DNA of 64,000 nt, taken from positions 32,001-96,000 of the forward strand of contig CAWDDT010000010.1 of the NCBI GenBank assembly GCA_963801165.1, read 5' to 3'. Each line of letters begins with the position of its first letter. Position 1 is the first letter of the stretch. The stretch comes from an uncultured bacterium. GTDB lineage: Bacteria; Actinomycetota; Acidimicrobiia; Spongiisociales; UBA5794. The position numbers and the translations under genes are program-made. The notes under the pieces were generated by a model. That model had not been told where the DNA came from. It ran no database searches and was given only the letters and a program-made list of their open reading frames with translations. Positions 1-52,793 of the stretch are shown here, piece by piece.

Positions 1-211
1 GCGGGACGTCGAGGCCCTATTCGGCCGCTTCGGTAAGGTCCATCAGGCGACTGTTATCACCGACAGGCGCACCGGCCGGTCCAAGGGATATGGCTTTGTC
101 GACATGGCGGACACCTCCGCCCGAGAGGCTCTGGCCGCGTTGAACGGCTCATCCATGAATGGCCGGGACCTCATGGTCAAGTTCGCTGAGCCGCGCCGCT
201 TCGGTGGGTGA
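1..211 (+). CDS. RNA-binding protein, RRM domain (5' partial)
   Basis: Not in the ORF track. The frame from nt 2 reads RDVEALFGRFGKVHQATVITDRRTGRSKGYGFVDM...LNGSSMNGRDLMVKFAEPRRFGG*, containing the RNP1 motif KGYGFV. Confidence 0.9.
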   Translation, partial: RDVEALFGRFGKVHQATVITDRRTGRSKGYGFVDMADTSAREALAALNGSSMNGRDLMVKFAEPRRFGG

Positions 212-229
212 CGCAGTCCGCACGACGGC

Positions 230-338
230 GTAACTGCGAAGAGCGGTAACTGCGAAGAGCGGTAACTGCGAAGAGCGGTAACTACGAAGAGCCGTAACTA
301 CGAAGAGCCGTAACTACGAAGAGCCGTAACTACGAAGA
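230..338. repeat. 16-bp tandem repeat GTAACT(G/A)CGAAGAGC(G/C), about 7 copies
   Basis: Read directly. Three copies of one variant are followed by four of a second (last truncated); there are no spacers. Confidence 0.95.
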
Positions 339-359
339 AATGAATCAAAGGAATACCGA

Positions 360-38486: not shown

Positions 38487-39137
38487 CTATTCGGCGACCT
38501 CGAGATCGCTGATCGCCGCTCGGAATGCGGCGGCCTCCGCCCTCCGGCTCATGTCGAGCTTGTGCAGCAGCGCCGACACGTAGTTTTTGACGGTCTTCTC
38601 CGCCAGATTCAGCTCGTCTGCGATCTGGCGGTTGGTGAGCCCGTCGGCAATGAGCGAGAGGACCCGACGCTCCTGTGGGGAGAGACGATCTAGCCGTTCG
38701 GCGAGCTGCGCCTCGGCCCCGCCCGTAACGAGGGCAGCTTCTGCCTTTTCGTCGATCACGAGGTCCTCACCGGCAACGACCCTGCGTATGGTGTCGACGA
38801 GCGACTTGAGCGCCATCCGCTTGACCAGATAGCCGGAGGCACCGGCGTCGATGGCGTCGCGGAGCAAATCGAGATCCGCATACGTGGTGAAGATCACGAC
38901 CTTTGTGGCCGGGTGGCTCTCCCTGATCTTGCGAGTCGCATCGATACCGGATCCGTCACCGAGCCGGATGTCCATCAACACGACATCGGGTTCGAGACGA
39001 TCGACGCAGTCGAGAGCGTCGGCACAGTTGCCCGCTTCCGCCACGAGAGTCATATCGCTCTGGCTATCGATGTATGAGGCGACACCCGCCCTGACTACGT
39101 AGTGGTCGTCGACGACCAGAACCCGAATTGCTGCCAT
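38487..39137 (-). CDS. NarL/DosR-like response regulator
   Basis: Receiver domain plus LuxR HTH (GLTNRQIA..LAEKTVKNYVS). Confidence 0.92.
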   Translation of the reverse strand: MAAIRVLVVDDHYVVRAGVASYIDSQSDMTLVAEAGNCADALDCVDRLEPDVVLMDIRLGDGSGIDATRKIRESHPATKVVIFTTYADLDLLRDAIDAGASGYLVKRMALKSLVDTIRRVVAGEDLVIDEKAEAALVTGGAEAQLAERLDRLSPQERRVLSLIADGLTNRQIADELNLAEKTVKNYVSALLHKLDMSRRAEAAAFRAAISDLEVAE

Positions 39138-39212: not shown

Positions 39213-39881
39213 CTACTCGTCCGGCCATTCCTCTGCGGGGTATTTTGCGTCGCGATCGGCGATGTGTCGCGCCATGTAGGCCGCCGCCTCGTTGCGGTTG
39301 CGCAGACCGAGTTTTGCCAGAAGCCGGGAAATGTAGTTCTTGACTGTCTTCTCGGCGAGGAACACCCGGTCGGCGATCTCGCGGTTGGTGAGACCGTCGG
39401 CTATGAGCTCCAGGATGCGGATCTCCCGCTCGGAGAGTTGTGAGAACACCGGGTCGCCGACACTGTGGCCCCGTATCTGGTTGAAGAGTTTCGCCGTAGC
39501 CGCCGGGTCGATTACCGAGGTGCCCTCGTTGACGCTGCGGACGGCTTCGACGATACGGCCACCGTCGATTCGCTTCACTAGATACCCGGAGGCACCTGCC
39601 AGGATCGCCTCGTGGACCGTTTCCTCGTCAACGTGCGAGGACAGCATTAGAACCCGAACGTCGGGGAAGCGCTCGACGATCGTACGGCATGCGGTGACAC
39701 CGCTCATGTCGGGCAGACGAACATCCATGATCACGACGTCGGGTGAGTCATAGCCGGCACGGCGGATCGCCGAAGCGCCTGTGGCGGCCTCGCCTGCGAC
39801 TTCGATGTCGTCCTGGGACGAGAGAAGAGCCCGGAGACCCTCTCGCACCACGGGATGATCGTCTACTACCAATACACGCAA
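39213..39881 (-). CDS. NarL/DosR-like response regulator
   Basis: Receiver domain plus GLTNREIA..LAEKTVKNY. TTG start inferred from a GAGGA RBS. Confidence 0.92.
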   Translation of the reverse strand: MRVLVVDDHPVVREGLRALLSSQDDIEVAGEAATGASAIRRAGYDSPDVVIMDVRLPDMSGVTACRTIVERFPDVRVLMLSSHVDEETVHEAILAGASGYLVKRIDGGRIVEAVRSVNEGTSVIDPAATAKLFNQIRGHSVGDPVFSQLSEREIRILELIADGLTNREIADRVFLAEKTVKNYISRLLAKLGLRNRNEAAAYMARHIADRDAKYPAEEWPDE

Positions 39882-39954
39882 AGTGTTTCCTCTCGCTCCG
39901 TTCCACGCTAGCCAAATGCCCGAACCGCAGTACGTGCCATCCGCCCCGAACCGG

Positions 39955-39968
39955 GGGACATTCGGCCC
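39955..39968. promoter_or_regulatory. DosR/DevR-type box GGGACATTCGGCCC
   Basis: Fits GGGAC-N4-G(T/G)CCC, between the divergent regulator and kinase genes. Confidence 0.7.
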
Positions 39969-39997
39969 CAACCAGAACGGCGAGGTATCGTTCGTCC

Positions 39998-41107
39998 ATG
40001 GAATCTACCGCCGAGCGTGACCGCTTCGCCGCATTGCTCGATGCTGCCGCCCAGGTATCGGAGCAGGAAGAGCTACATGGGCTCCTCGAGTCTCTGGTCG
40101 ACATAGCGATGGGTCTTACCGGTGCCGCCTTCGGGGCACTCGGAGTCGTTGGCGCCCACGGCTTCCTCGTCGACTTCATCCACAAGGGGATGCCGAAGGA
40201 GGACGTAGATGCGATCGGTCATCTCCCCCTCGGTCTCGGTTTGCTCGGTGCCATCACCCGTGGCGAGACCATCCGGGTCGACCAGATCTCGTCCCACCCG
40301 GATTCGGCCGGAATGCCGGCGGGCCATCCGGACATGCAGACGTTTCTCGGTGTGCCCTTGCGAACCCGCAACGAGGCGTTTGGGAATATCTACCTGGCGG
40401 GCAAAGCGGACGGCTTCACCGACGACGACGAGCGAACGATCGAAACGTTGTCACTCATTGCAAGTGCCGCAGTGGCCAACGTGCGGATCCACCGCCGGCT
40501 CCGGGAAGCGGCGGTTGCCGAGGATCGCGCCCGGATTGCCCGGGACGTGCACGATGACATCATCCAGGATCTCTTCGCCGTCGGCTTGTCACTGCAGGGT
40601 CTGGCGGATTCGCTCGAAGACGAAAGTGCCAGGAGGGTGGTTGGGACACAGGTCGAGCGCGTTGACGACTGCATAACGTCTTTGCGTCAGTTCATCTTCA
40701 ATCTGCGGCAACCAGGGTCCCACTCGCGCGACCTTGAGATCGAGGTGACCGAGCTTGTAGAGGAGCTAGCTGAGCCCTACTCGGCCGAGGTCGAGGTCGC
40801 CGTCGATTCGCTTGCCGACCGCTTCAGCACCGACATCACCGATGCGGTTCTACACATAGTGAAGGAAGCCACGAGCAACGCGCTCAGACACAGCAACAGC
40901 CCGCTCGTGCGTGTCCTCGTCACCGGAGGGTTCAGCAACCTGTCCGTCTCGGTGATCGACCACGGGATCGGCTTCGACGCCAACCGGTCTCACGAGGGGA
41001 TGGGTCTGGCGAACCTGCAGCAGCGGGCGGCCGATGTCGGCGGCGAGCTCGCAGTCAAGAGCAGCGACAACGGCACGACTGTGAGCCTCGTTCTGCCCAT
41101 TCGCTAG
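39998..41107 (+). CDS. DosS/DosT-like GAF sensor histidine kinase (HisKA_3)
   Basis: GAF segment HPDSAGMPAGHPDMQTFLGVP resembles the DosS heme-binding GAF-A. RIARDVHDDIIQ and GMGLANL motifs. Confidence 0.9.
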   Translation: MESTAERDRFAALLDAAAQVSEQEELHGLLESLVDIAMGLTGAAFGALGVVGAHGFLVDFIHKGMPKEDVDAIGHLPLGLGLLGAITRGETIRVDQISSHPDSAGMPAGHPDMQTFLGVPLRTRNEAFGNIYLAGKADGFTDDDERTIETLSLIASAAVANVRIHRRLREAAVAEDRARIARDVHDDIIQDLFAVGLSLQGLADSLEDESARRVVGTQVERVDDCITSLRQFIFNLRQPGSHSRDLEIEVTELVEELAEPYSAEVEVAVDSLADRFSTDITDAVLHIVKEATSNALRHSNSPLVRVLVTGGFSNLSVSVIDHGIGFDANRSHEGMGLANLQQRAADVGGELAVKSSDNGTTVSLVLPIR

Positions 41108-41437: not shown

Positions 41438-41587
41438 ATGACAAGTGAAGGCGAGAGCGGCAACGAGACCCAGGAGGAGTTCAAGCCCAGGGGCACCGTT
41501 GCTGTCACTGCCGCATTCGTAGTGGTGATGCTGATCCTCTGGTTCAGCGTTTACGCCATTTTGCTCTCTCGAGGGGCGACGATATGA
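41438..41587 (+). CDS. cbaD: ba3-type cytochrome c oxidase subunit IIa (49 aa, below the ORF-track cutoff)
   Basis: MTSEGESGNETQEEFKPRGTVAVTAAFVVVMLILWFSVYAILLSRGATI* has KPxGT, one TM and WFxVY..RG. GGGAGG RBS; ATGA overlap with subunit II. Confidence 0.85.
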   Translation: MTSEGESGNETQEEFKPRGTVAVTAAFVVVMLILWFSVYAILLSRGATI

Positions 41588-42141
41588 GTGCGGACGCAGG
41601 CGGCGAGAAGCAGAAGATGCACATCGACGCAACGGAGATGAGCTGGATCCGTACCTCGATCATCGTGCTCGTGCTCTTTGCGATCGCCATCGCCATCGCC
41701 GGTTTCATGCTCGGGATCCAGGTCCCGACCCGGGAGAAGCGGGTCGACCCGAACACGATTGCCAACTCCGCCCCCTGGGCGGCGCCAACCGCCGATGATG
41801 TCGGCGATCCTCGCATCCAGGAGCTGGAACCGGGTGCGAAATACAACATCTACATCGTCGCCCAGATGTGGTTCTACACCCCGAACCAGATTCCGACACC
41901 GGAGTCGGGTATCACGATTCCCAAGGGGTCCGAAGTCACCTTCTACGTGACCTCGAAGGATGTCCAGCACGGGTTCCGGATCGAAGGCACAAACGTCAAC
42001 TTCATGCTGATCCCGGGTCAGGTTTCCACGCTGAAGCACACCTTCGATGAGGCGGGCACATACAACTTCATCTGCACCGAGTACTGCGGTACCGGCCACG
42101 CAGGTATGTCCGGCACGATCACGATCTCTGATACCGAGTAG
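41584..42141 (+). CDS. cbaB: ba3-type cytochrome c oxidase subunit II (CuA)
   Basis: Single TM segment, DVQHGF and CTEYCGTGHAGM motifs. Confidence 0.93.
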   Translation: MSADAGGEKQKMHIDATEMSWIRTSIIVLVLFAIAIAIAGFMLGIQVPTREKRVDPNTIANSAPWAAPTADDVGDPRIQELEPGAKYNIYIVAQMWFYTPNQIPTPESGITIPKGSEVTFYVTSKDVQHGFRIEGTNVNFMLIPGQVSTLKHTFDEAGTYNFICTEYCGTGHAGMSGTITISDTE

Positions 42142-42154
42142 AGAGGAGGCTCGA

Positions 42155-43864
42155 ATGGTTACTGAAACAACGGCGGCTCCTGTCTACGAGATCAGCAAGA
42201 CGGACAAGAGGTTCATCGGCTGGCACATCTTCATTGCGGTGACCGCACTGACAATCGGGAGCCTCTTTGGCCCACTGCAGGCTCTGGAGCAGGCAGGGAT
42301 AGATCTCTATCCGAAGCTCGACTTCCTGTTCATCCACATGAACGCGATGCCGTCGGCGTACTACCAGGGTCTCACGCTGCATGGGGTGCTGAACGCGCTG
42401 ATTTGGACGACGTTCTTCATCACAGGGTTCTCCACTCTTGCCGTGATCAGGGGTCTGAAGCGTGAGCTGGCGTACCCGCTGCTGAACCGGATCGGGTTCT
42501 GGACGATGGTGGTCGGTCTCGTCACCGCGGCGATCCCGCTGCTGGGCGACAAGGCCAGCGTCCTTTACACGTTCTACCCGCCCCTGCAGGCAGACAAGCT
42601 GTTCTACATCGGTCTGGTTCTGGTGGTTGTCGGGAGCTGGACGGAGGGTTGGGGGTTCTACTTCACCGTCGGCAAGTGGCGTAAGGAGCACCCGGGCGAG
42701 AAGCTGCCGTTTATCACGCTGGCCGTCGTGATCAACATGGTCATGTGGCAAATCGCCACCGTCGGCATCGCCGCCGAGATTCTCGGCCTCATCCTGCCGT
42801 GGGCATTCAACCTGTCAGGCGGTATCGACCCACAAATGTCCCGGACGTTCTTCTGGTTCACCGGACACCCACTTGTGTACTTCTGGCTGCTACCGGCCTA
42901 TGCGTCCTGGTACGGGATGCTTCCCAAGCAGGTCGGCGGCAAGCTATTCAGCAATACGCTGGCGAAACTGGCCTTCTGGCTCTTCCTCCTGCTGTCTGTG
43001 CCCCTCGGCTTCCACCACCAGTTCGTGGATCCGGGCGTTCCGGCCGGATGGAAGTTCATCCACTCGATGCTGACGCTTGGCGTGTTCTTCCCGTCGCTGC
43101 TGACGCTGTTCACCGTGGTGGCGTCGTTGGAATACGGCGCCAGGAAACGCGGAGGAAAGGGCCTCTTTGGGTGGATCCGGGCGCTGCCGTGGGGCGATCC
43201 GTCGGTGGCCGCCCAGCTGCTGGCAGGAATCCTGTTCATGTTCGGAGGCATTAGCGGTCTCGCCAATGCCTCATACAACGTGAACCTGGTGCTGCACAAC
43301 ACCACCTGGGTCCCCGGCCACTTCCACCTGACCGTGGCGTCGGCCGTGACCCTGTCGTTCGTCGGGATGTCGTACTGGCTCGTTCCTCACATCACGGGTA
43401 AACCTCTATGGCGTCCCAAGCTGGCAGTGGCCGGGGCCTGGACGTACTTCGGCGGCATGCTGATCTTTTCGAACGCGATGCACACAGTCGGGCTGCTCGG
43501 GGCGCCGCGGCGCACCCCGCTCGGGCTGGCTCCTTATGTTCCCAGCGAATGGAACGGCCACCTTTTCCGGGTAGCCGTCGGTGGGGCGATCATGTGGATC
43601 GGGCTGATGACGTTCGTCGTTGTCATCGCCGTCACCGCTTTCCAGCGGAAGCGGCTGCCTGCCGGCGAGTTCGTCGATATCCCGGTCGCCGAGTCGCTGG
43701 ACGATCCCAACAACATTCCATTGTGGCTCGACCGATTCAAGCCGTGGCTGATCGCAGCCGCCGTGCTGATCATTCTCGCCTACGGACCCCAGATGTTGGA
43801 TCAGATCTTCGGAATACAGTTGACGTCACCGGGATACATTCCCACATCCCCGGCGTCATTGTGA
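42155..43864 (+). CDS. cbaA: b(o/a)3-type (family B) heme-copper oxidase subunit I
   Basis: YYQGLTLHG, WFTGHPLVYFW, GFHHQ, HNTTWVPGHFH and GAPRR motifs. Confidence 0.95.
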   Translation: MVTETTAAPVYEISKTDKRFIGWHIFIAVTALTIGSLFGPLQALEQAGIDLYPKLDFLFIHMNAMPSAYYQGLTLHGVLNALIWTTFFITGFSTLAVIRGLKRELAYPLLNRIGFWTMVVGLVTAAIPLLGDKASVLYTFYPPLQADKLFYIGLVLVVVGSWTEGWGFYFTVGKWRKEHPGEKLPFITLAVVINMVMWQIATVGIAAEILGLILPWAFNLSGGIDPQMSRTFFWFTGHPLVYFWLLPAYASWYGMLPKQVGGKLFSNTLAKLAFWLFLLLSVPLGFHHQFVDPGVPAGWKFIHSMLTLGVFFPSLLTLFTVVASLEYGARKRGGKGLFGWIRALPWGDPSVAAQLLAGILFMFGGISGLANASYNVNLVLHNTTWVPGHFHLTVASAVTLSFVGMSYWLVPHITGKPLWRPKLAVAGAWTYFGGMLIFSNAMHTVGLLGAPRRTPLGLAPYVPSEWNGHLFRVAVGGAIMWIGLMTFVVVIAVTAFQRKRLPAGEFVDIPVAESLDDPNNIPLWLDRFKPWLIAAAVLIILAYGPQMLDQIFGIQLTSPGYIPTSPASL

Positions 43865-43891: not shown

Positions 43892-46213
43892 TTGAGTAAA
43901 CGCGACGAAGTCCCGCTGGACGGGCCATCAGTCGACTGGCCGCTCCGCACCCGGAACAGGGTACGGAGCGGCTTGCGCGTGCTGGAGCGTTTGAGCCTGA
44001 AAGCGGAACGACCCGTGGGCAAGGCGGTTGGCTCACCCCGTCTCAACCCCTTCTACCACACGGGGACGATCTCGGTCTTTCTGTTTGGGGTGGTGCTGGT
44101 CACCGGGATCTACCTCACCGCGTTCTACCAGTATGGCTTCGCCGACTCCTACAAGGCGGTCGCCGCCATCGAGGCGAACGTGGCCGGCAGGATGGTGCGG
44201 GCGGTTCATCGGTACGCCTCGGTGGCGCTCGTCGTGACGTCTCTGCTCCACGGCTGGCGAACGTTCTTCCAGGATCGGTTCCGTGGCTCGCGTTGGGTCG
44301 CCTGGGTATCGGGTGTGGGGATGATGCTGCTCCTCTGGGTGATCGGCGTCACCGGGTACTGGCTCATATGGGACGAGCGGGCCGAGGTCATCAACCGGGT
44401 GTTTATCAGGGCGATCGACGGGATGACTCTCGGGCTCGACTTCGTCATCGACAGCGTCGTCTCGCCGGTGGCCGGCACGGGCTGGCCCTTCCTGCTGCTG
44501 ATATTCCTGATCCACTTCGGTTTGTCGATGCTGGCCGGCGTCCTCATCTGGGTACACGTCAAGCGTCTCAACCGCGCCAAACTGCTGCCGCCACGTTTCT
44601 GGATGATCCTCATCGGCGGTGCCATCGTGATCGCGGCGGTGGTATGGCCGGTCGGGATGCTGGGCTCGTTTGATCCCAACCGGCTGCCCGGAACCTTCCC
44701 CGTGGACCCGTTCTACCTGTTCTTGATGCCGCTCGGGCTCCGGTGGTCTCCGGGTTGGCTCTGGGGCGGCGTCGTAGTGGTGAGTGCTTTGGTGACCGGG
44801 ATTCCCTGGCTGCTGCGACGCCAACCGCTCGACCCCATCGTCGTGAATGCCGATCGCTGCACGGGGTGCACCCTCTGTGTCGCCGACTGCCCCTACAAGG
44901 CGCTCGAGATGGTGCCTCGCGAGGACGACACGAAGTACCGCCAACTCGCCGTGGTGCTCGAGGATCTATGCGTGGCGTGCGGTATCTGCGTCGGCAGCTG
45001 TCCGACCGAGGCGCTAACGCTGGGCGATCAGCCCGCTGAGGCGTTGTGGGACGAAGTGCGCCATCTCGCCGGGACGGGTGACAGCCCCCGAATCGTGTTG
45101 ACCTGCGAGCGGCACGCGCTACAAGGTGCCGCGACACACGTCGGTGAGGGGGGTCTGGACATCGACGGCAAGCCGGGCCACGTCGTAGCGGTGCCCTGCG
45201 TGGGCATGATTCACCCGGGGCTGGTGGGAGCGGCCCTCGAGGCCGGGGCAGGTGACGTCCAGATCATCGGGTGCCCTCCGGCCGACTGCACCAACCGGGA
45301 GGGAAACGACTGGTTGCAGGCGCGGCTCGACCGGGAGCGGGTCCCCCGTCTCAAACGTGAGTACGTAGACGCACGGATCACCACAGACTGGATACCGCCC
45401 GACTCGTTCGGCGAGGCCGTCGCCAACCCGGGCGGACAGCCGATCGCCGATCCCGAGGAGCGGCCGGATCGGCGCCGTCAGATACCGGCGCTCATCCTCG
45501 TGACCGTCGTCACGCTCGTTTCGATTGCGCTGACCAACATCAGGTTCACTCCGGCTACGGCAGGCGAGACTGTGATCGCTCTCGCCGTCGACCACGAGGG
45601 CGGGGAGCCGCTGATGGGGTTCGAGAACATGAAGCCTGCGGTAGAGGAAGGCATCCCGCCGCGACTCGTTGTCGAGCTAGACGGACGGTCGGTGTTCGAC
45701 AAGACCTATGACGTAGTGCATGCCGACGGTGGTGAGACCGCTCTCGGCTACGACCTGATCGAGGTCGAGCCCGGCCAGCACCAGGTCAAGGTCACCATGT
45801 TTGACCGATCCGACCAACCGGGGGGCTTCGTCGTGTTCGACGACGTCGTTGGGCTGAAGGTCGGTCAGATCTTCAACGTTGCGTTGAACGACGAACCGGT
45901 GACCACAGAGGCCGACGCGGGGCGTTCTCTGTTCATGGAGAACACGTTCGGCGTCAACACGGGGTGCCGGCTGTGCCACTCGCTCGAACCCGGCGTCGTG
46001 TTGGTTGGTCCTTCGCTCGCAGGGGTTGCCACCCGAGCCGAAACCCGGGTGCCCGGCTTGACGGCCGCTGAGTACCTGCGCCAGTCGATCGTCGACCCCA
46101 ACGCTTACGTCGTCGACGGATTCCCCAAAGGTCAGATGTTCCAGAACTTTGCCCAGGTGCTGACCGGGGAGCAGATCGATAGCCTCGTCGCGTTCCTGCT
46201 GACTCTCAAGTAG
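43892..46213 (+). CDS. multidomain redox protein: cytochrome b + 2x[4Fe-4S] ferredoxin + MvhD/FlpD-like Fe-S domain + C-terminal cytochrome c
   Basis: Cyt b His pairs (HRYAS/LLHGW, IHFG/VHVK), CTGCTLCVADCP and CVACGICVGSCP, TC..VPCVG..GCPPADC..REG, a TM segment, then CRLCH...GQM. Confidence 0.88.
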   Translation: MSKRDEVPLDGPSVDWPLRTRNRVRSGLRVLERLSLKAERPVGKAVGSPRLNPFYHTGTISVFLFGVVLVTGIYLTAFYQYGFADSYKAVAAIEANVAGRMVRAVHRYASVALVVTSLLHGWRTFFQDRFRGSRWVAWVSGVGMMLLLWVIGVTGYWLIWDERAEVINRVFIRAIDGMTLGLDFVIDSVVSPVAGTGWPFLLLIFLIHFGLSMLAGVLIWVHVKRLNRAKLLPPRFWMILIGGAIVIAAVVWPVGMLGSFDPNRLPGTFPVDPFYLFLMPLGLRWSPGWLWGGVVVVSALVTGIPWLLRRQPLDPIVVNADRCTGCTLCVADCPYKALEMVPREDDTKYRQLAVVLEDLCVACGICVGSCPTEALTLGDQPAEALWDEVRHLAGTGDSPRIVLTCERHALQGAATHVGEGGLDIDGKPGHVVAVPCVGMIHPGLVGAALEAGAGDVQIIGCPPADCTNREGNDWLQARLDRERVPRLKREYVDARITTDWIPPDSFGEAVANPGGQPIADPEERPDRRRQIPALILVTVVTLVSIALTNIRFTPATAGETVIALAVDHEGGEPLMGFENMKPAVEEGIPPRLVVELDGRSVFDKTYDVVHADGGETALGYDLIEVEPGQHQVKVTMFDRSDQPGGFVVFDDVVGLKVGQIFNVALNDEPVTTEADAGRSLFMENTFGVNTGCRLCHSLEPGVVLVGPSLAGVATRAETRVPGLTAAEYLRQSIVDPNAYVVDGFPKGQMFQNFAQVLTGEQIDSLVAFLLTLK

Positions 46214-46215
46214 CT

Positions 46216-46650
46216 ATGACGTCGATGCGGGCGACGTCGATGCGGGCGAGGTCGATGCGGGCGGCGGCGGCGGCTCTGGTGCTCCTGGTGACCGGATGTG
46301 GGGGAGGCTCCGCCCCGGCTGCGACGGTAGACGTACCGGTGGCGACGCCGCGACCGGTGGAGACGCTTGGCAGAGAGCTCTTTGCTGAGAGGGTGATCGG
46401 CACGAACCCGGGGTGTGTCACCTGTCATTCGCTCGAGGAGGGTGTCACCCTTGTCGGCCCGTCGCTGGCTGGCGTGTCATCACGCATCGAAGGAATGAGC
46501 GATTCCGACTACGTCCGGCAATCCATCGTCGACCCCGATGCCTATGTCGTCCCGGGGTTCACTGCCGGCCAGATGAGTCAGAACTGGGGCGAAGTCCTCA
46601 CCGAGGAGCAGGTCGACAGCCTGGTCGATTTCCTGGTGACGAGCGGCTGA
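46216..46650 (+). CDS. monoheme cytochrome c lipoprotein
   Basis: Lipobox VTGC, CVTCH and GQM. Very similar to the C-terminal domain of the upstream fusion. The 5' end has a 15-bp x3 repeat, so the true start may be a later ATG. Confidence 0.9.
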   Translation: MTSMRATSMRARSMRAAAAALVLLVTGCGGGSAPAATVDVPVATPRPVETLGRELFAERVIGTNPGCVTCHSLEEGVTLVGPSLAGVSSRIEGMSDSDYVRQSIVDPDAYVVPGFTAGQMSQNWGEVLTEEQVDSLVDFLVTSG

Positions 46651-46704: not shown

Positions 46705-47133
46705 CTACTTGACCGGGAATGCCTCTTCGGTGCCGCTGGCGCCCTCTCCGGCGACCGTGCGCTCGCCGTGCAGCTCGCCATCGTCGTTGATTTCGTAGCG
46801 GGCGGTACCTTGTGAGGCCGAGTCGAATCCCTGCCACTCGACATCCAACTCGGTGCCGGTGACCGTTCCCTTTCCCGTCTGGATGCTCCCGGTGATGATC
46901 CACTGCATGTTGACGACGTCGGGTTGATCGGTGGCGACGATCTCGAGGGTGCCCCCGTATTCGGTGCCTTCCGGGTCCACCCCGTTTACGTAGTAAGTGC
47001 CGACAAGACTGCCGTCGAAACCCTGCTGCGGGAAGGCGCACGCGGATGCGGTGATGGCGACCAGCAGAGCTAACGTAATAGGAGCCCGTAGCAAGCGGTT
47101 GCGGCGCGGACGCGTTTGGTTGGCAGGGGCCAT
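46705..47133 (-). CDS. hypothetical lipoprotein (small beta-rich domain)
   Basis: Lipobox-like ASAC and a GTYYVNG..PEG..YGG.LEI segment. Confidence 0.65.
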   Translation of the reverse strand: MAPANQTRPRRNRLLRAPITLALLVAITASACAFPQQGFDGSLVGTYYVNGVDPEGTEYGGTLEIVATDQPDVVNMQWIITGSIQTGKGTVTGTELDVEWQGFDSASQGTARYEINDDGELHGERTVAGEGASGTEEAFPVK

Positions 47134-47203
47134 CGGGTCTCCGGATCGATTGCAGTCGGGGAGTATATATGGAGCCCCGGATGGTGCTTCCACGAGGAGA
47201 CGC

Positions 47204-47872
47204 ATGCGCAAGAAGGTGATCATCGGCTCGGCCATTCCGGTGGTTCTGATCATCGGTGCCGCGGTTGCGTTCGCCGTTTTCCAGCCCATCCAGGTGCTGC
47301 CTCGTATCCGGTTGGCGCCGGGCTATCTGCTGGTGAACCAGGATGGTGAGACCGTGTCCTCCGAGGACGTTCGCGGTGACATCGTCCTCTACGACTTCAC
47401 CTACAGCGGTTGCGGCGACGAGTGCGCAGCGATGAATGACACCATGGCCGCAATTCAGAGCCGTCTCGACGAGATCGACGCCGGCGACACGGATATCAGG
47501 TTCATGACGGTCTCATTCGACCCGGAGCATGACACGCCCGGCGTATTGCGCGACTACGCCGCCACACTCGGCGCCAATACCGCGCAATGGCAGTTCGTCA
47601 CCGGCGACCCGATCCACGTGACCAATGTCGTGAAATCCGGTTTCGAGGTCTATTACCAGCCGCAGCCTGACGGCACGTACACGTTCGCTCCCGTGTTCGT
47701 CCTGGTGGATGGGTGGGGAGTGATCAGGGGTGAGTACCGCTACCAGACCAATGCCTCCGATGCCGACAAGATCGTGCACCACATGGACATCCTCGGCGAG
47801 GAGGTGCGCAATGCACACGGTGCCGCCGCCCTGGCATACGAGGCAGCCCACTTCTTCCTCTGCTACCCATGA
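47204..47872 (+). CDS. SCO family protein (atypical)
   Basis: FTYSGCGDEC and VSFDPEHDT motifs. The usual Cu-ligand His is not evident. Confidence 0.85.
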   Translation: MRKKVIIGSAIPVVLIIGAAVAFAVFQPIQVLPRIRLAPGYLLVNQDGETVSSEDVRGDIVLYDFTYSGCGDECAAMNDTMAAIQSRLDEIDAGDTDIRFMTVSFDPEHDTPGVLRDYAATLGANTAQWQFVTGDPIHVTNVVKSGFEVYYQPQPDGTYTFAPVFVLVDGWGVIRGEYRYQTNASDADKIVHHMDILGEEVRNAHGAAALAYEAAHFFLCYP

Positions 47873-48483
47873 AAGGTAGGCGTCTCTGGACGGGTATTGC
47901 GGTCGGGCTGCTCGGCGTGCTGGTGGCGTGGTTCGTGATCTTGCCGCATTTCGTCAACAGGGTCCGCCCCCACATCTTCGGGGGGACCGTTGTCCAGTCG
48001 AACCAGAAGGTCCCCAACACCGAGCTCATGTCGGCCAACGGACCGGTCCGGCTCTCCGATTTCGCCGGCAAGTTGCTGGTTGTGTACTTCGGCTACACCT
48101 ACTGCCCGGACGTCTGCCCGGCGACCCTGAGCAAGCTGGCCGATTCCATGGAAATCGTGGGTGACAAGGCAGACGACGTCCAGGTGATAATGGTGTCGAT
48201 CGACCCGGCGCGGGACACACCAGATGTCATACAGGACTACGTGACCCACTTCGATCCCGATTTCCTCGGACTGACCGGTGACGAGGCTTCGGTCAACCTC
48301 GTGGCTACGCTCTTCGGCGTCACCTACCAGCGGGTCGACAATGCAGAGGCCACCAGCTACACGATGGATCACACCTCAACCGTTATCCTCGTCGACCGTG
48401 AGGGATACCTGAAGCTCGTGCTCCCCTTCGAAGGATCAGCGGAGCAGATCGCATCCGACATCGACTTCTTCCTGAGCAAATGA
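47869..48483 (+). CDS. SCO family copper chaperone
   Basis: FGYTYCPDVCP, DPARDT and MDHT motifs. Confidence 0.93.
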   Translation: MKGRRLWTGIAVGLLGVLVAWFVILPHFVNRVRPHIFGGTVVQSNQKVPNTELMSANGPVRLSDFAGKLLVVYFGYTYCPDVCPATLSKLADSMEIVGDKADDVQVIMVSIDPARDTPDVIQDYVTHFDPDFLGLTGDEASVNLVATLFGVTYQRVDNAEATSYTMDHTSTVILVDREGYLKLVLPFEGSAEQIASDIDFFLSK

Positions 48484-49079
48484 ACACAAGACGCTGGATG
48501 ATCCCGGTTGCCGCCCTCCTGGGGGTTCTCGTTGCTTTGCTCGCGCTCTCACTGCGCAGCAAGCCGCACGAGTTCATCGGGACCGTGTTTGCCGATGAGG
48601 AGGTAGCGCCTGATTTCACACTCACCGCAGACAGTGGGGAACCGGCGTCACTCAGCGACTATCGGGGCGACGTTGTCCTGCTCTATTTCGGGTACACGTA
48701 CTGTCCGGACGTCTGCCCGACCGTGCTGGCGAATCTGGCGGCGGTGCGGGAGACGCTGAGTCAAACCGATCGGGATCGGGTCCAGGTGGTGATGGTCTCG
48801 GTCGATCCCGCCCGGGATACTCCGGATGTCTTGCATACGTACCTGGAGCATTTTGATCCTTCGTTTGTGGGGTTCACCGGCTCGAGCGATGAGATCGCCA
48901 AGGTTGCCGCCGCATACAACGTCACCTACGAGGCGCACGAGGGTACCGCCGCAACCGGGTACCTCGTCGATCATTGGGCCGGGTTCTACCTCGTTGATCC
49001 CGGGGGGAACCTGGTCGAGTCATTCAGCTACGGTACGCCTGCTGTAGACGTCGCCGCCGATGTCAGGGAGTGGCTGTGA
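48480..49079 (+). CDS. SCO family copper chaperone
   Basis: FGYTYCPDVCP, DPARDT and VDHW motifs. Confidence 0.93.
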   Translation: MNTRRWMIPVAALLGVLVALLALSLRSKPHEFIGTVFADEEVAPDFTLTADSGEPASLSDYRGDVVLLYFGYTYCPDVCPTVLANLAAVRETLSQTDRDRVQVVMVSVDPARDTPDVLHTYLEHFDPSFVGFTGSSDEIAKVAAAYNVTYEAHEGTAATGYLVDHWAGFYLVDPGGNLVESFSYGTPAVDVAADVREWL

Positions 49080-50014: not shown

Positions 50015-50107
50015 ATCCCGGTGCCGACGGCTCGCGCCGGGCAACGCGACAATACGGTTTCGTGTCGGAGGGCCCCATTACCATCGCTATCTATGGGATC
50101 GCTATCT

Positions 50108-51064
50108 ATGGGTCAGCTCTTTGTGGAAGGATGGGCTCCGGAGTACGGAAGCCCTTATGAGGCCGATGACGCCCTTGCCGATGAGGGAAAGGTGGACGAG
50201 TCGGTCGAAGCCGACGGTCCCTGGGTTCCCATACCCGGGGTAGACGACGGCGTTGCCGAGGTGGCAATCGTCGATGGTGTTCGGCGCATCGACGCCCGGC
50301 TCACCATCGACGAACCGGCCGGTCCTATTCCCGGGATATGCGGAAGCTACGGTGTCGGTGCCGTGATCTGGAATCGGCCCGAGGCAAGGTCGGCGTTCAC
50401 CGAGATCCAGATCGAGCGGCTGGCGGTGTTCGGCAACGGGGCCGGCGCTCCTATCCCCGCCGATGGGCCCGTTATCTACCGATCGGAATCGGTGCCCGAC
50501 TCGGATCCCGGGGCGCTCATCAGACACTTCCACGGTGCGATGCGCAAGGCGGAAGCGCGGTTGTCGGAGCGGTTGGGCCAATCGGGCCTGTTCGTAGTCG
50601 CCGACGGGCCGATCAACGACCTCTCCGCAACAGAGAAGGTCGGCTACATCAAGTCGCACCGGGCCCCGTACCTGTCGGAGCAACGAGCGCCGGTGATCGG
50701 CAGAGTGCGGGCGGGGGAGCGGACGCCGCTGTTCGTTATCGGCAAGGGCGGGCAGTACGAGCGCTACTCGTGGTACCAGCGTCTCGCCGATCTCCCCGGC
50801 GGGCACTCGTGGACCGGGGTGGTCAGGTGTGAGGTGTCGAGCGCACTCCGGCTCGCTCAAGCGATTGCGATCGCCAACCGGACGACGGCGTTGCTGCCGC
50901 TGCTTGCGTCGCAGGCCCACATAGATCCACGGGCTCCGCAGAACCTCGTGCCGATCGCCGCACTCGAGCGCGAATTGAGAAGACGCCTCGGCGACTCCGG
51001 TTTCGTCTACCGTGCTCTGAGGACCGCGGTAGCCGCCGGCAGCAGGGAGGCTCGTGATGGTTGA
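50108..51064 (+). CDS. NurA-like nuclease
   Basis: VDGVRR, VADGP, GYIKSH and PRAPQNL.PI..LE motifs. Directly upstream of the HerA-like gene. Confidence 0.78.
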   Translation: MGQLFVEGWAPEYGSPYEADDALADEGKVDESVEADGPWVPIPGVDDGVAEVAIVDGVRRIDARLTIDEPAGPIPGICGSYGVGAVIWNRPEARSAFTEIQIERLAVFGNGAGAPIPADGPVIYRSESVPDSDPGALIRHFHGAMRKAEARLSERLGQSGLFVVADGPINDLSATEKVGYIKSHRAPYLSEQRAPVIGRVRAGERTPLFVIGKGGQYERYSWYQRLADLPGGHSWTGVVRCEVSSALRLAQAIAIANRTTALLPLLASQAHIDPRAPQNLVPIAALERELRRRLGDSGFVYRALRTAVAAGSREARDG

Positions 51065-52793
51065 CAGCAGCAGCAACGACAACGGGGTCGGGCGAGTCCT
51101 CGGTACCGAGCACACTTCCACCCGCGAGTTCCGTGTTGTCCTCGACGAGACCGAATACCTGCAACTCGACGATCTCGTGGTTGTCCGGACCCAGGTCCCC
51201 AAACAGGGGGAGGTCCGCACCTACGGTGTCGTCACCGAGGTCGCGGCCGTTTACGAGGGCGCCACGTTCGAGAGTGACACGCACCGGATCGCAGTCGACG
51301 GCACGATGCCAGGGGCCAAGGTGAGATCGGCGGAGGTAGCCATCACCCGGGTGGACCCTGAGCTGTGGGTATCCCCCGACCCCGGCGAGAAGGTCGAGCG
51401 GGCCCGGGGGCTGGAGCGGGACAAGGCTCTCTACGTTGATGAGATGGGGCGACCGCTCCCCATCGGCTTGGGACGAGACGGTGAGCCGGTGTTCGTCGAT
51501 CTCGATTTCTTCGACGGTCGCAAGGGCGGCCACATGTCGATCTCGGGGATAAGCGGTGTCGCCACCAAGACCTCGTTTGCCCTGTTCTTTCTGCGCCTCC
51601 TGGCGGCCCGACCCGATGTTCTCGGCGAGGGTGCCGCCAACCTGCGAATCCTCGTCTTCAACGTCAAGGGCGAGGACTTGCTCTGGCTCGACAAGAAGAA
51701 CCGGTACTTCGACCCCGGCGACGCCGACACCTGGCATAGCCTCGGCGTCGAGCCCGGCCCGTTCCCCTCCGTGTCGTTCTGGGCGCCACCGCGGGTGCAG
51801 ACCGGTGACGTAGTCATCCCCGATACCGGCGGACGTCAGGAAGGCGTGGACGCTTTCGGGTGGACGCCACGCGAGTTCATCGACGACGGGTTGTTGCGCT
51901 TCTTGTTCACCGACGCCAGCGACAGTCGCAACCAGATCCCGTTCATAGAGGAGCGCGTGCGGGCGCAGTTGCAGAGGTACGCCGTCGATGTCGCCGGCCG
52001 GCCGGGCGCCGTCGTGCTGCGCGACCCGGTCGAAGGGCACGCCCCCGGAGCCAGCGTCGTGCCCAACCGGGGCGAGCGGATCATCACGGAACTGCGCACG
52101 CTGGTCGACGCGGTCGAGGAGTTCGTCGACCCCGAAGACGGGGAGCCCGATCAGCGTTGGACCGGGCGGGTCCAGGCAGGCACCGTTTCGGCGTTTGTCC
52201 GCCGGCTGCACTCGGCGGCCCATCGTCTCGGGCACCTGGTCAGGGCCGGTGACAGCCGGCAGATCGACCGCAGAGCGGCTCAGGTCACCGTGGTGGCCAT
52301 CCAGACGCTCCACGACCTCGGTCAGCGGTTCGTGGTGGGTGCACTGCTGGCGGAGACGTTTGCCGAGAAGGAGCAAACCGGGCAGCGCCTTCCGCTCTCG
52401 GTGATCGTGCTCGATGAGTTGAACAAATACGCCCCCAGGGAGGGCAGCAGCCCGCTCAAGGAGATGTTGATCGATATTGCCCAGCGGGGGCGGTCGCTGG
52501 GTGTGCTCCTGGTCGGGGCGCAGCAGACCGCGTCGCGGGTGGCTTCGGAGGTGATGGAGAACGCGGCGCTCAGGGTGGCGGGGCGTCTCGACGCCGCCGA
52601 GGCGGAGCGCTCCGAGTACGGCTGGATGCTGCCGTCGACCCGGGCACGGGCACGTCTTCTCAAACCGGGGACGATGGTGGTCAGTCAACCGGCGCTTCCG
52701 GTTCCTCTCGTCGTCGAGTTCCCGTTCCCGCCTTGGGCGACGCGTAAGGAGGAGGTCGACACGGCCGATAGCGACCCGTTTGCCGGGCTGTGA
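51057..52793 (+). CDS. HerA-like ATPase (HAS barrel + FtsK/HerA P-loop)
   Basis: N-terminal HAS-barrel-like region, GISGVATKT, FNVKGED, LDELNKY and RGRSLG..GAQQ motifs. Confidence 0.85.
   Translation: MVDSSSNDNGVGRVLGTEHTSTREFRVVLDETEYLQLDDLVVVRTQVPKQGEVRTYGVVTEVAAVYEGATFESDTHRIAVDGTMPGAKVRSAEVAITRVDPELWVSPDPGEKVERARGLERDKALYVDEMGRPLPIGLGRDGEPVFVDLDFFDGRKGGHMSISGISGVATKTSFALFFLRLLAARPDVLGEGAANLRILVFNVKGEDLLWLDKKNRYFDPGDADTWHSLGVEPGPFPSVSFWAPPRVQTGDVVIPDTGGRQEGVDAFGWTPREFIDDGLLRFLFTDASDSRNQIPFIEERVRAQLQRYAVDVAGRPGAVVLRDPVEGHAPGASVVPNRGERIITELRTLVDAVEEFVDPEDGEPDQRWTGRVQAGTVSAFVRRLHSAAHRLGHLVRAGDSRQIDRRAAQVTVVAIQTLHDLGQRFVVGALLAETFAEKEQTGQRLPLSVIVLDELNKYAPREGSSPLKEMLIDIAQRGRSLGVLLVGAQQTASRVASEVMENAALRVAGRLDAAEAERSEYGWMLPSTRARARLLKPGTMVVSQPALPVPLVVEFPFPPWATRKEEVDTADSDPFAGL

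Follow-up and report, generated by a model that had tools for sequence, protein, structure and literature searches.

In the usual view, cytochrome c oxidases receive their electrons from complexes of the bc1/b6f type or from alternative complex III. The locus described here raises the question of what role is played by an unusual protein encoded directly behind the two catalytic subunits of a B-family oxidase. The locus lies in a stretch of 64,000 nucleotides, called the window below, from an uncultured bacterium of the Acidimicrobiia (lineage UBA5794; assembly GCA_963801165.1, contig CAWDDT010000010.1, here C10, positions 32,001 to 96,000 of the forward strand). The protein joins a cytochrome b, a ferredoxin-MvhD iron-sulfur (Fe-S) module and a cytochrome c in a single chain, and we refer to it as the fusion. 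We propose, tentatively and with slightly less than even confidence, that it is the private electron-input module of a ba3-type oxygen reductase and takes its electrons from a cytoplasmic reductant. A preliminary description, made from the window's sequence alone, had read it as a single-chain, Rieske-free wire leading from quinol or a cytoplasmic reductant to cytochrome c and the oxidase. The features of the fusion, in window coordinates, are as follows.

43892..46213, + strand: fusion gene, 773 amino acids, TTG start.
44036..44827, + strand: cytochrome b helices A-F, residues 49-312 (Pfam, fold match, secondary structure of the model, invariant ligands).
44837..45019, + strand: 2x[4Fe-4S] ferredoxin domain, residues 316-376, predicted to be cytoplasmic (Pfam Fer4/Fer4_7, eight invariant Cys).
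45095..45403, + strand: MvhD/FlpD-like domain, residues 402-504, with Cys405/436/461/466, predicted to be cytoplasmic (Pfam FlpD, invariant Cys).
45470..45532, + strand: seventh transmembrane helix, residues 527-547, at the place of helix G (hydropathy, model helix, alignment with mitochondrial cytochrome b).
45545..45901, + strand: predicted periplasmic immunoglobulin-like beta-sandwich, residues 552-670, with invariant His568 (structure models).
45917..46210, + strand: class-I cytochrome c domain, residues 676-773 (invariant CxxCH, fold match).

The TTG start codon is preceded by GGAAG, agrees with the N-termini of homologs (MSKRDE...), and lies 27 nucleotides behind the cbaA stop codon (TGA, 43862-43864), the spacing first reported for it. 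Pfam placed Cytochrome_B (PF00033) at residues 48-223 with 47.4 bits (cut-off 27.2), two Fer4/Fer4_7 stretches within residues 316-376, and FlpD (PF02662) at residues 402-504 with 40.3 bits (cut-off 22.3), so that the cytochrome b and FlpD assignments of the preliminary description both lie above threshold; cytochrome b6 chains in the PDB also matched the protein at E ~1e-15. The match to Cytochrom_C (residues 676-773) reached 20.5 bits and thus fell 0.8 bit below the cut-off of 21.3. The cytochrome c assignment is nevertheless secure, because this domain matched PDB sequences (7zs0, a Kuenenia dihaem cytochrome, E 3.8e-10; 1w2l, the cytochrome c domain of a caa3 oxidase, E 2e-6) and PDB folds (Kuenenia Kustd1711, Z 8.8; 1w2l, Z 8.6) and has an invariant CxxCH; the tail therefore combines the CxxCH, distal Met and fold of a class-I cytochrome c. 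Translation and Pfam together upheld the earlier claim that one reading frame of 773 codons holds all of these domains, the additional transmembrane helix and the ligand motifs.

The candidate ligands in the translation are His106/His120 and His208/His222 for heme b, in pairs spaced 14 positions apart on helices B and D; C323-C326-C329-C333-P and C360-C363-C366-C370-P for the ferredoxin clusters; TC405, VPC436VG and GC461PPADC466 for the MvhD-type site; and C692RLC695H696 with Met749 for heme c. In an alignment of 98 relatives with 45-83% identity to the fusion, the four heme b His, the eight ferredoxin Cys, Cys405/436/461/466, Cys692, Cys695 and His696 were invariant in all 98, and Met749, conserved in at least 90%, was the only cofactor ligand that was not. 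The heme b His and all eight ferredoxin Cys were invariant also in a wider superfamily alignment of 41 sequences. Because at least 599 full-length relatives were found, and 400 clusters at E <=1e-30 emerged when the representatives at 50% identity were searched exhaustively, we conclude that the fusion is not a chance reading frame. Its relatives are named "hydrogenase iron-sulfur subunit" or "ferredoxin" in the source databases.

At least 540 stretches were confirmed in a one-genome-per-species collection, and 80 loci were kept from these for analysis of synteny (19 Actinomycetota, mostly Acidimicrobiia, 60 Chloroflexota and 1 unassigned, by record titles). Relatives also occurred in soil and salt-marsh metagenomes and in metagenome-assembled genomes (MAGs) of Nitrospinae and Nitrospira. 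Of the 80 records, 78 bear a MAG label; the other two are L020, described simply as "bacterium", and L069. The genes next to the fusion in the window are these:

41584..42141, + strand: cbaB, oxidase subunit II with CuA site (Pfam COX2).
42047..43864, + strand: cbaA, B-family (ba3-type) oxidase subunit I (similarity to Thermus ba3); the real start is probably the ATG at 42167.
46216..46650, + strand: lipoprotein cytochrome c, 144 amino acids (Pfam; lipobox LLVTGC).

Among the 66 informative loci, which had at least 2.4 kb of upstream sequence, 63 carried cbaB-cbaA directly upstream on the same strand, in Acidimicrobiia and Chloroflexota alike. The three exceptions were L075, with a 300-codon reading frame between the oxidase genes and the fusion; L085, with the oxidase about 6 kb upstream; and L080, without an oxidase within 3.5 kb. 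That the oxidase is an oxygen reductase of the B family is indicated by the match of CbaA to Thermus thermophilus ba3 subunit I (E 3e-143), by its HPLVY motif (His274...Tyr278) and by His323/His324, which together provide the three CuB His and the cross-link Tyr. The CuA ligands of CbaB (H129, C164, E166, C168, H172, M175) were invariant in 24 homologs. In this cytochrome c-tailed main branch of the family, the CuA motif was found in all 63 loci scored and the Tyr of oxygen reductases (GHPLVY) in subunit I of 70 of 71. The fusion gene thus occupies the third position in a conserved operon, cbaB-cbaA-X, in agreement with the link to a family-B oxidase suggested earlier. The cytochrome c tail was fused in 76 of the 80 loci, and a separate cytochrome c gene followed downstream in 31 of 69. 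In the window, that gene begins 2 nucleotides past the fusion stop codon, and its product is a paralog of the fused domain (62% identity over 95 amino acids to residues 677-771). Split forms were also sought within the main branch; the 85 shorter matches were mostly labeled partial or lay at contig ends, and no clear split was found.

To describe the membrane part, we used an AlphaFold2 model built from the 98-sequence alignment (mean predicted local distance difference test score 88.2, predicted template modeling score 0.82). The best fold matches were actinobacterial QcrB and the cytochromes b of bc1 complexes: residues 49..312 of the model superposed on QcrB 34..357 (Z 23.2, root mean square deviation 2.8 Å over 256 residues), and residues 49..555 aligned with mitochondrial cytochrome b 25..343. 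The model contains cd1/cd2 helices at 162-175 and 179-190 and an ef element at 269-284. Because the match extends over a full cytochrome b, with helices E to G covered as well, we conclude that the membrane part, as modeled, is a full seven-helix, two-heme cytochrome b (A-G) and not merely its four-helix N-terminal domain. The equivalence of helices E-G rests on the predicted fold, since sequence profiles detect A-D only: the profile alignment to the genome's own QcrB covered just these four helices, and an assignment of helices E-F to the PetD/cytochrome b C-terminal domain by sequence was rejected (hhalign probability 0.07 against the genome's own subunit IV).

Hydropathy (six peaks plus an amphipathic helix B), the positive-inside pattern (an N-terminus and a D-E loop rich in K and R) and the model agree on a topology with the N-terminus inside, the Fe-S domains cytoplasmic, and the C-terminus with heme c outside, as the preliminary description had supposed. 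Because the model fits a full cytochrome b, and the F-G loop of that protein lies on the cytoplasmic (n) side, the ferredoxin-MvhD module (residues 316-504) is predicted to be an insertion of about 210 residues in the F-G loop, on the side of heme bH. The beta-sandwich and heme c would follow helix G on the outer (p) side, that of heme bL. The sandwich matched no named family, and a fold search for a known redox or metal domain gave generic beta-sandwich matches only (Z <=7.7).

The Fe-S module resembles MvhD and the ferredoxin-MvhD module at the C-terminus of HdrA2: residues 317-501 correspond to HdrA2 positions 573-749, FlpD scored above its cut-off, and the four MvhD-type Cys are invariant. 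Its MvhD-type site would be of the [2Fe-2S] type. The domain in the fusion is, however, far more divergent (43.9 bits) than the stand-alone MvhD of this genome (187.8 bits), belongs to an aerobe's membrane-bound cytochrome, and stands away from HdrA and hydrogenase; no HdrA or [NiFe] hydrogenase gene was found near the fusion in the window or in the related loci.

We then asked which other respiratory complexes this organism encodes. The genome (4.55 Mb, 13 contigs, 98% complete) contained five Rieske matches, none of them on C10, so the window itself has no Rieske gene, as stated in the preliminary description. It also contained ctaE-qcrC-qcrA-qcrB on contig C5 and two further Rieske/b6 clusters on contigs C9 and C11, and Rieske/cytochrome b pairs were present in all five other fusion-carrying genomes examined. 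Because this genome has its own qcrCAB and the other carriers have such pairs, we rejected the suggestion that the fusion is a Rieske-free replacement for the actinobacterial bcc complex or for complex III in general. Around the fusion, Rieske genes occurred only inside a separate neighboring cluster (GltD-like NAD(P)H module - b6 - subunit IV - Rieske - cytochrome c), which the fusion operon abuts in 11 of the 80 loci. The genome encodes three heme-copper subunits I, each with its own cytochrome b module nearby, a pattern that supports the assignment of the fusion to its oxidase as one module per enzyme.

Three other clusters of the genome were characterized. The first (C9 35856-40641; L091 3857-8642) encodes a cupredoxin, a 676-amino-acid GltD-like NAD(P)H oxidoreductase with Fe-S domains, cytochrome b6, subunit IV, Rieske and cytochrome c; its gene content suggests a putative Rieske/cytochrome b complex of the anammox style that includes an NAD(P) module, here within an Acidimicrobiia-like genome. 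In the second (C11 259361-267419; L090 3362-11420), a fused COX1+FixO gene (cbb3-like, 664 amino acids) is divergent from a b6-type operon that encodes a 204-amino-acid protein of unknown family, a 147-amino-acid 2x[4Fe-4S] ferredoxin, cytochrome b6, a 311-amino-acid subunit IV-like protein, Rieske and a 532-amino-acid cytochrome c; this is a second putative b6-type complex with an n-side Fe-S partner. The third (C4 580890-587679; L171 3890-10679) is of the Mvh-Hdr type and encodes a CCG-domain protein, an HdrA-like flavoprotein, a canonical MvhD, small and large [NiFe]-hydrogenase subunits and a maturation protease.

Taken with the operon structure, the following path can be proposed for the fusion. 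A cytoplasmic reductant (ferredoxin, or a docking flavoprotein or hydrogenase) would load the Fe-S chain, and the electrons would cross the membrane through heme bH and then heme bL to arrive at the fused heme c. From there they would pass to CuA, either directly or through the co-encoded lipoprotein cytochrome c. The fused domain resembles the cytochrome c domain that donates electrons to CuA in caa3 oxidases. Such a route would skip the quinone pool and provide a low-yield, high-affinity oxygen outlet for cytoplasmic reducing power at low oxygen; menaquinol might serve as a second input through the Qo-like pocket considered below. A path of this kind would conserve little energy and would suit oxygen scavenging or redox balancing at low oxygen. 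We infer the electron donor, the direction of flow and the contact between fusion and oxidase. Cytoplasmic input is favored because this genome and the five other carriers already own Rieske/cytochrome b complexes, because the Fe-S insert is the defining, invariant feature of the family, and because transfer from Fe-S to heme b to heme c is downhill and the membrane potential favors outward movement of electrons. The single-chain wire of the preliminary description thus stands as to domain order, topology and link to the oxidase, and falls as to its framing as a Rieske-free replacement.

Several observations weigh against cytoplasmic input. No gene for a cytoplasmic donor is conserved beside the operon in the related loci surveyed, and a 479-amino-acid flavoprotein lies downstream in merely 17 of the 80. 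An Mvh-type hydrogenase cluster was present in four of the six carrier genomes examined (this one and three of the five others); as a universal donor the hydrogenase was rejected, since a stand-alone MvhD beside a NiFe hydrogenase was not found in G003 and G005. Occupancy of the fusion by two hemes b, heme c and Fe-S clusters is inferred from the ligands alone. In a cytochrome c-less branch of the family, described below, the core is placed after ctaB and senC, which fits a role in biogenesis as well. Finally, the model appears to keep a Qo-like architecture, in which the cd1/cd2 helices are joined by an ef helix and by an invariant Asp at the presumed position of PEWY, and this is hard to square with a pure wire, which does not need it.

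The last point bears on the main rival explanation, that the fusion is a Rieske-less menaquinol:cytochrome c oxidoreductase with a Qo-type pocket, which we regard as rather unlikely but as a serious contender. The tethered heme c would stand in for the Rieske head, accepting one electron of menaquinol and passing it to ba3; the second electron would go to bL and bH, and the Fe-S chain would drain it to a cytoplasmic acceptor or feed a Qi-like site. By the structural alignment ranges, the motif VDPFY (271-275) falls within the ef loop; in that loop, QcrB of this genome reads PDWY. Asp272 of this motif is invariant in the 98 relatives and conserved in at least 90% of the 41-sequence superfamily alignment. 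Its correspondence to the acid of the Qo motif (PEWY) is a lead suggested by the model, since sequence profiles leave that part unaligned. With the complete cytochrome b fold, these results suggest that a Qo-like pocket is retained and that a menaquinol site may be present. Three things argue the other way: the operon contains no Rieske gene, the PetD/cytochrome b C-terminal domain went undetected by sequence profiles, and the carriers already possess Rieske/cytochrome b complexes.

Comparison with known complexes speaks to the same choice. Like the cytochrome b of bc1, b6f and bcc complexes (QcrB, PetB+PetD), the fusion has the four heme His, seven superposing helices and the cd and ef elements; unlike it, the fusion belongs to an operon without Rieske, carries an Fe-S insert between F and G, reads VDPFY at the presumed place of the Qo motif, and has the beta-sandwich and cytochrome c in place of helix H. 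In the b6c complex of the Bacillus type, QcrC is a fusion of subunit IV and cytochrome c, with the cytochrome c outside after the last helix. The fused cytochrome c described here likewise follows the final helix of the part equivalent to subunit IV and is predicted to lie outside, which agrees with a menaquinol-oxidizing function; the fusion differs from the Bacillus complex in being one chain, in its immunoglobulin-like spacer and Fe-S insert, and in the absence of a QcrA Rieske protein. Tmc, Hmc and DsrMKJOP of sulfate reducers have NarI-type cytochromes b and CCG-type Fe-S proteins in separate subunits, with electrons flowing inward to sulfite reduction. The fusion resembles them in combining a periplasmic cytochrome c, a di-heme cytochrome b and cytoplasmic Fe-S clusters as a transmembrane wire, and differs from them in its type of cytochrome b, its type of Fe-S protein, its single chain and the direction proposed for its electrons.

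Further precedents come from n-side modules and from b-c modules. Both other b6-type clusters of this genome carry n-side Fe-S or NAD(P) modules, which favors menaquinol oxidation by the fusion as well. Anammox-type Rieske/cytochrome b complexes resemble the fusion in having a cytoplasmic Fe-S/flavin module on a b6-type cytochrome; unlike the fusion, they keep Rieske, split b6 and subunit IV, and have a separate GltD-like subunit. For anammox bacteria, such n-side modules have been proposed as a source of NAD(P)H (PMC12954380), a precedent on the side of the menaquinol rival. So are CbcL and CbcBA of Geobacter, which, in the available part of their description (10.1101/2021.04.15.440034), are Rieske-free quinol oxidoreductases whose b and c modules connect the membrane with periplasmic carriers. 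CbcL is a b-c fusion there, and the b domains of both are of a type related to hydrogenase membrane anchors. They differ from the fusion in this type of b domain, in their multiheme c domains and in having no link to an oxidase, and that part of the source describes no cytoplasmic Fe-S module for them (10.1101/2021.04.15.440034).

A variant of quinol oxidation combines these elements. In an oxidase-coupled, Rieske-less bifurcating cytochrome bc, a swinging tethered cytochrome c would take the first electron of menaquinol to ba3, and the second would pass through bL, bH and the Fe-S clusters to ferredoxin or NAD(P)+. We hold this to be decidedly improbable. If it were true, aerobes could use quinol to generate a strong reductant, with oxygen reduction bearing the cost, and the cytochrome c-less branch would do likewise for enzymes resembling nitric oxide reductase (NOR).

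The modules of the fusion are thus all known. What is new is that they are combined in a Rieske-less cytochrome b-c carrying an Fe-S insert on the n side, and that this protein has a fixed link to B-type heme-copper enzymes. The preliminary description knew of no biochemical characterization, and our literature searches likewise found no published description of such a protein; the sole trace was one accession in an appendix table of PMC8756737, where its domains are given as cytochrome b6, DMSOR_beta-like and FlpD.

Outside the main branch, many representatives with 25-45% identity lacked the cytochrome c. When 26 of them were scanned, Cytochrome_B and Fer4 were detected in all 26, FlpD in 25 and Cytochrom_C in none. 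As a sample of this part of the family, we analyzed 78 metagenome loci of one cytochrome c-less branch. Of the 78, 53 encoded a heme-copper subunit I that shares about 30% identity with CbaA, and the usual gene order was subunit II - subunit I - ctaB - senC - core - periplasmic domain, with ctaA nearby. In 51 of the 53 subunits I, GHSSQQ replaces the motif of the cross-link Tyr; the CuA motif was retained in 41 of 43 loci. Covariation of the cytochrome c tail with CuA was rejected, because CuA is present in both branches (63/63 and 41/43). The enzymes of the distant branch are thus Tyr-less and B-family-derived, of the kind that has been proposed to reduce nitric oxide (PMC11214002). The text of that report and seven of its supplement files name no ferredoxin, cytochrome b, FlpD or hemerythrin partner. 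Because the cytochrome c-less branch adjoins these Tyr-less, NOR-like enzymes, we conclude that the core family accompanies B-type heme-copper operons in general, as an accessory.

When a tree was built from the cytochrome b domain (47 rows, first ~232 residues), all 41 proteins with the Fe-S module were split with 100/99 support from the six cytochromes b linked to Rieske, and the c-tailed group nested within its cytochrome c-less relatives. With the Rieske-linked sequences taken as outgroup, this separation and nesting point to one origin of the Fe-S insert and a later gain of the cytochrome c tail.

Some loci of the cytochrome c-less branch had further features. A bacteriohemerythrin gene directly follows the core in two metagenome loci (L108 10028-10453 and L163 10032-10457); the L108 protein scored 97.9 bits against a cut-off of 84, and L108 additionally carries a small cytochrome c and NnrS. 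In L108 (7977-10047), L140, L114, L095 and L142, the core (~510-530 amino acids) and a second part consisting of helix G and the beta-sandwich (~180-217 amino acids) are separate overlapping reading frames, which may mark a natural split where the periplasmic part begins. A tie between the family and "orf1" of the norSY-senC-orf1 cluster of ammonia oxidizers was considered and kept as a lead only, because the available texts of PMC4940428, PMC4964001 and 10.1101/765727 leave orf1 undefined.

The gene order of the distant branch, with the core behind ctaB and senC and ctaA nearby, raises the possibility that the protein serves the biogenesis or maintenance of B-type heme-copper enzymes and is no respiratory donor, exporting electrons for heme A synthesis or for reduction of CuA, SCO1 thiols or copper. 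The core does travel with assembly genes in both branches: in the main branch, one to three SCO1 genes flank the operon in most related loci, and some loci contain CtaA. Two conserved periplasmic Cys in the cytochrome c-less branch are also consistent with this role. We consider it improbable, since in the window the fusion stands right behind the catalytic subunits, with the next cytochrome c gene immediately after it, and a complete five-cofactor chain with a caa3-like cytochrome c at its end would be costly for an assembly task. To our knowledge, the known systems for assembly of CuA and heme A manage without such a protein.

The occurrence of relatives in nitrite-oxidizing lineages, the Nitrospinae and Nitrospira MAGs, brings in a further alternative, as nitrite oxidizers need reverse electron flow. 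Electrons from periplasmic cytochrome c would be driven inward at the cost of membrane potential to produce a low-potential Fe-S reductant, and the same wire could in principle run both ways. This seems to us very unlikely indeed: the constant gene neighbor is a terminal oxidase and not a periplasmic dehydrogenase, the step is strongly uphill, and Acidimicrobiia and Anaerolineae are mostly organotrophs.

The remaining genes around the operon in the window are listed here.

38487-39137 and 39213-39971, both - strand: two LuxR-type response regulators (Pfam).
39743-41107, + strand: GAF-HisKA_3 sensor kinase (Pfam).
46705..47133, - strand: small conserved lipoprotein, ~142 amino acids (lipobox).
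46997..49079, + strand: three tandem SCO1/SenC copper-chaperone genes, ending at 47872, 48483 and 49079 (Pfam SCO1-SenC); the first probably starts near 47200.

Kinase and LuxR genes were found upstream also in the Acidimicrobiia-type loci L010, L014, L018, L020, L034 and L082, and an Rrf2 regulator took their place in 26 of the 80 loci, of the Anaerolineales type. The kinase/LuxR pair of the window presumably resembles the hypoxia sensors DosS/DosR, and both it and the Rrf2 regulators are compatible with a role of the operon at low oxygen. A homolog of the small lipoprotein adjoins the fusion in 62 of the 80 loci, on either strand. Its lone family signal was a weak, sub-threshold match to LIC10280_fam; the idea that this small downstream gene encodes a diverged hemerythrin was rejected, because BLAST found no similarity and the lipobox makes the product a lipoprotein. 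Further downstream, two reading frames without a Pfam family (347 and 579 amino acids) occupy window positions 50021-52793 on the + strand, and the first of these is kept downstream in Acidimicrobiia-type loci at 71-80% identity.

The results add a third, widespread module to the two kinds of complex named at the outset, one hard-wired to B-type heme-copper enzymes, and they correct the automatic name "hydrogenase iron-sulfur subunit", which is misleading for this family. If the fusion does carry electrons from a cytoplasmic Fe-S reductant to a high-affinity oxidase, the accounting of energy yield and oxygen scavenging would change for abundant Chloroflexota and Acidimicrobiia. It would also explain the retention of oxidases by Anaerolineae that are nominally anaerobic, and the electron supply of NOR-like enzymes that make nitrous oxide would become clearer.

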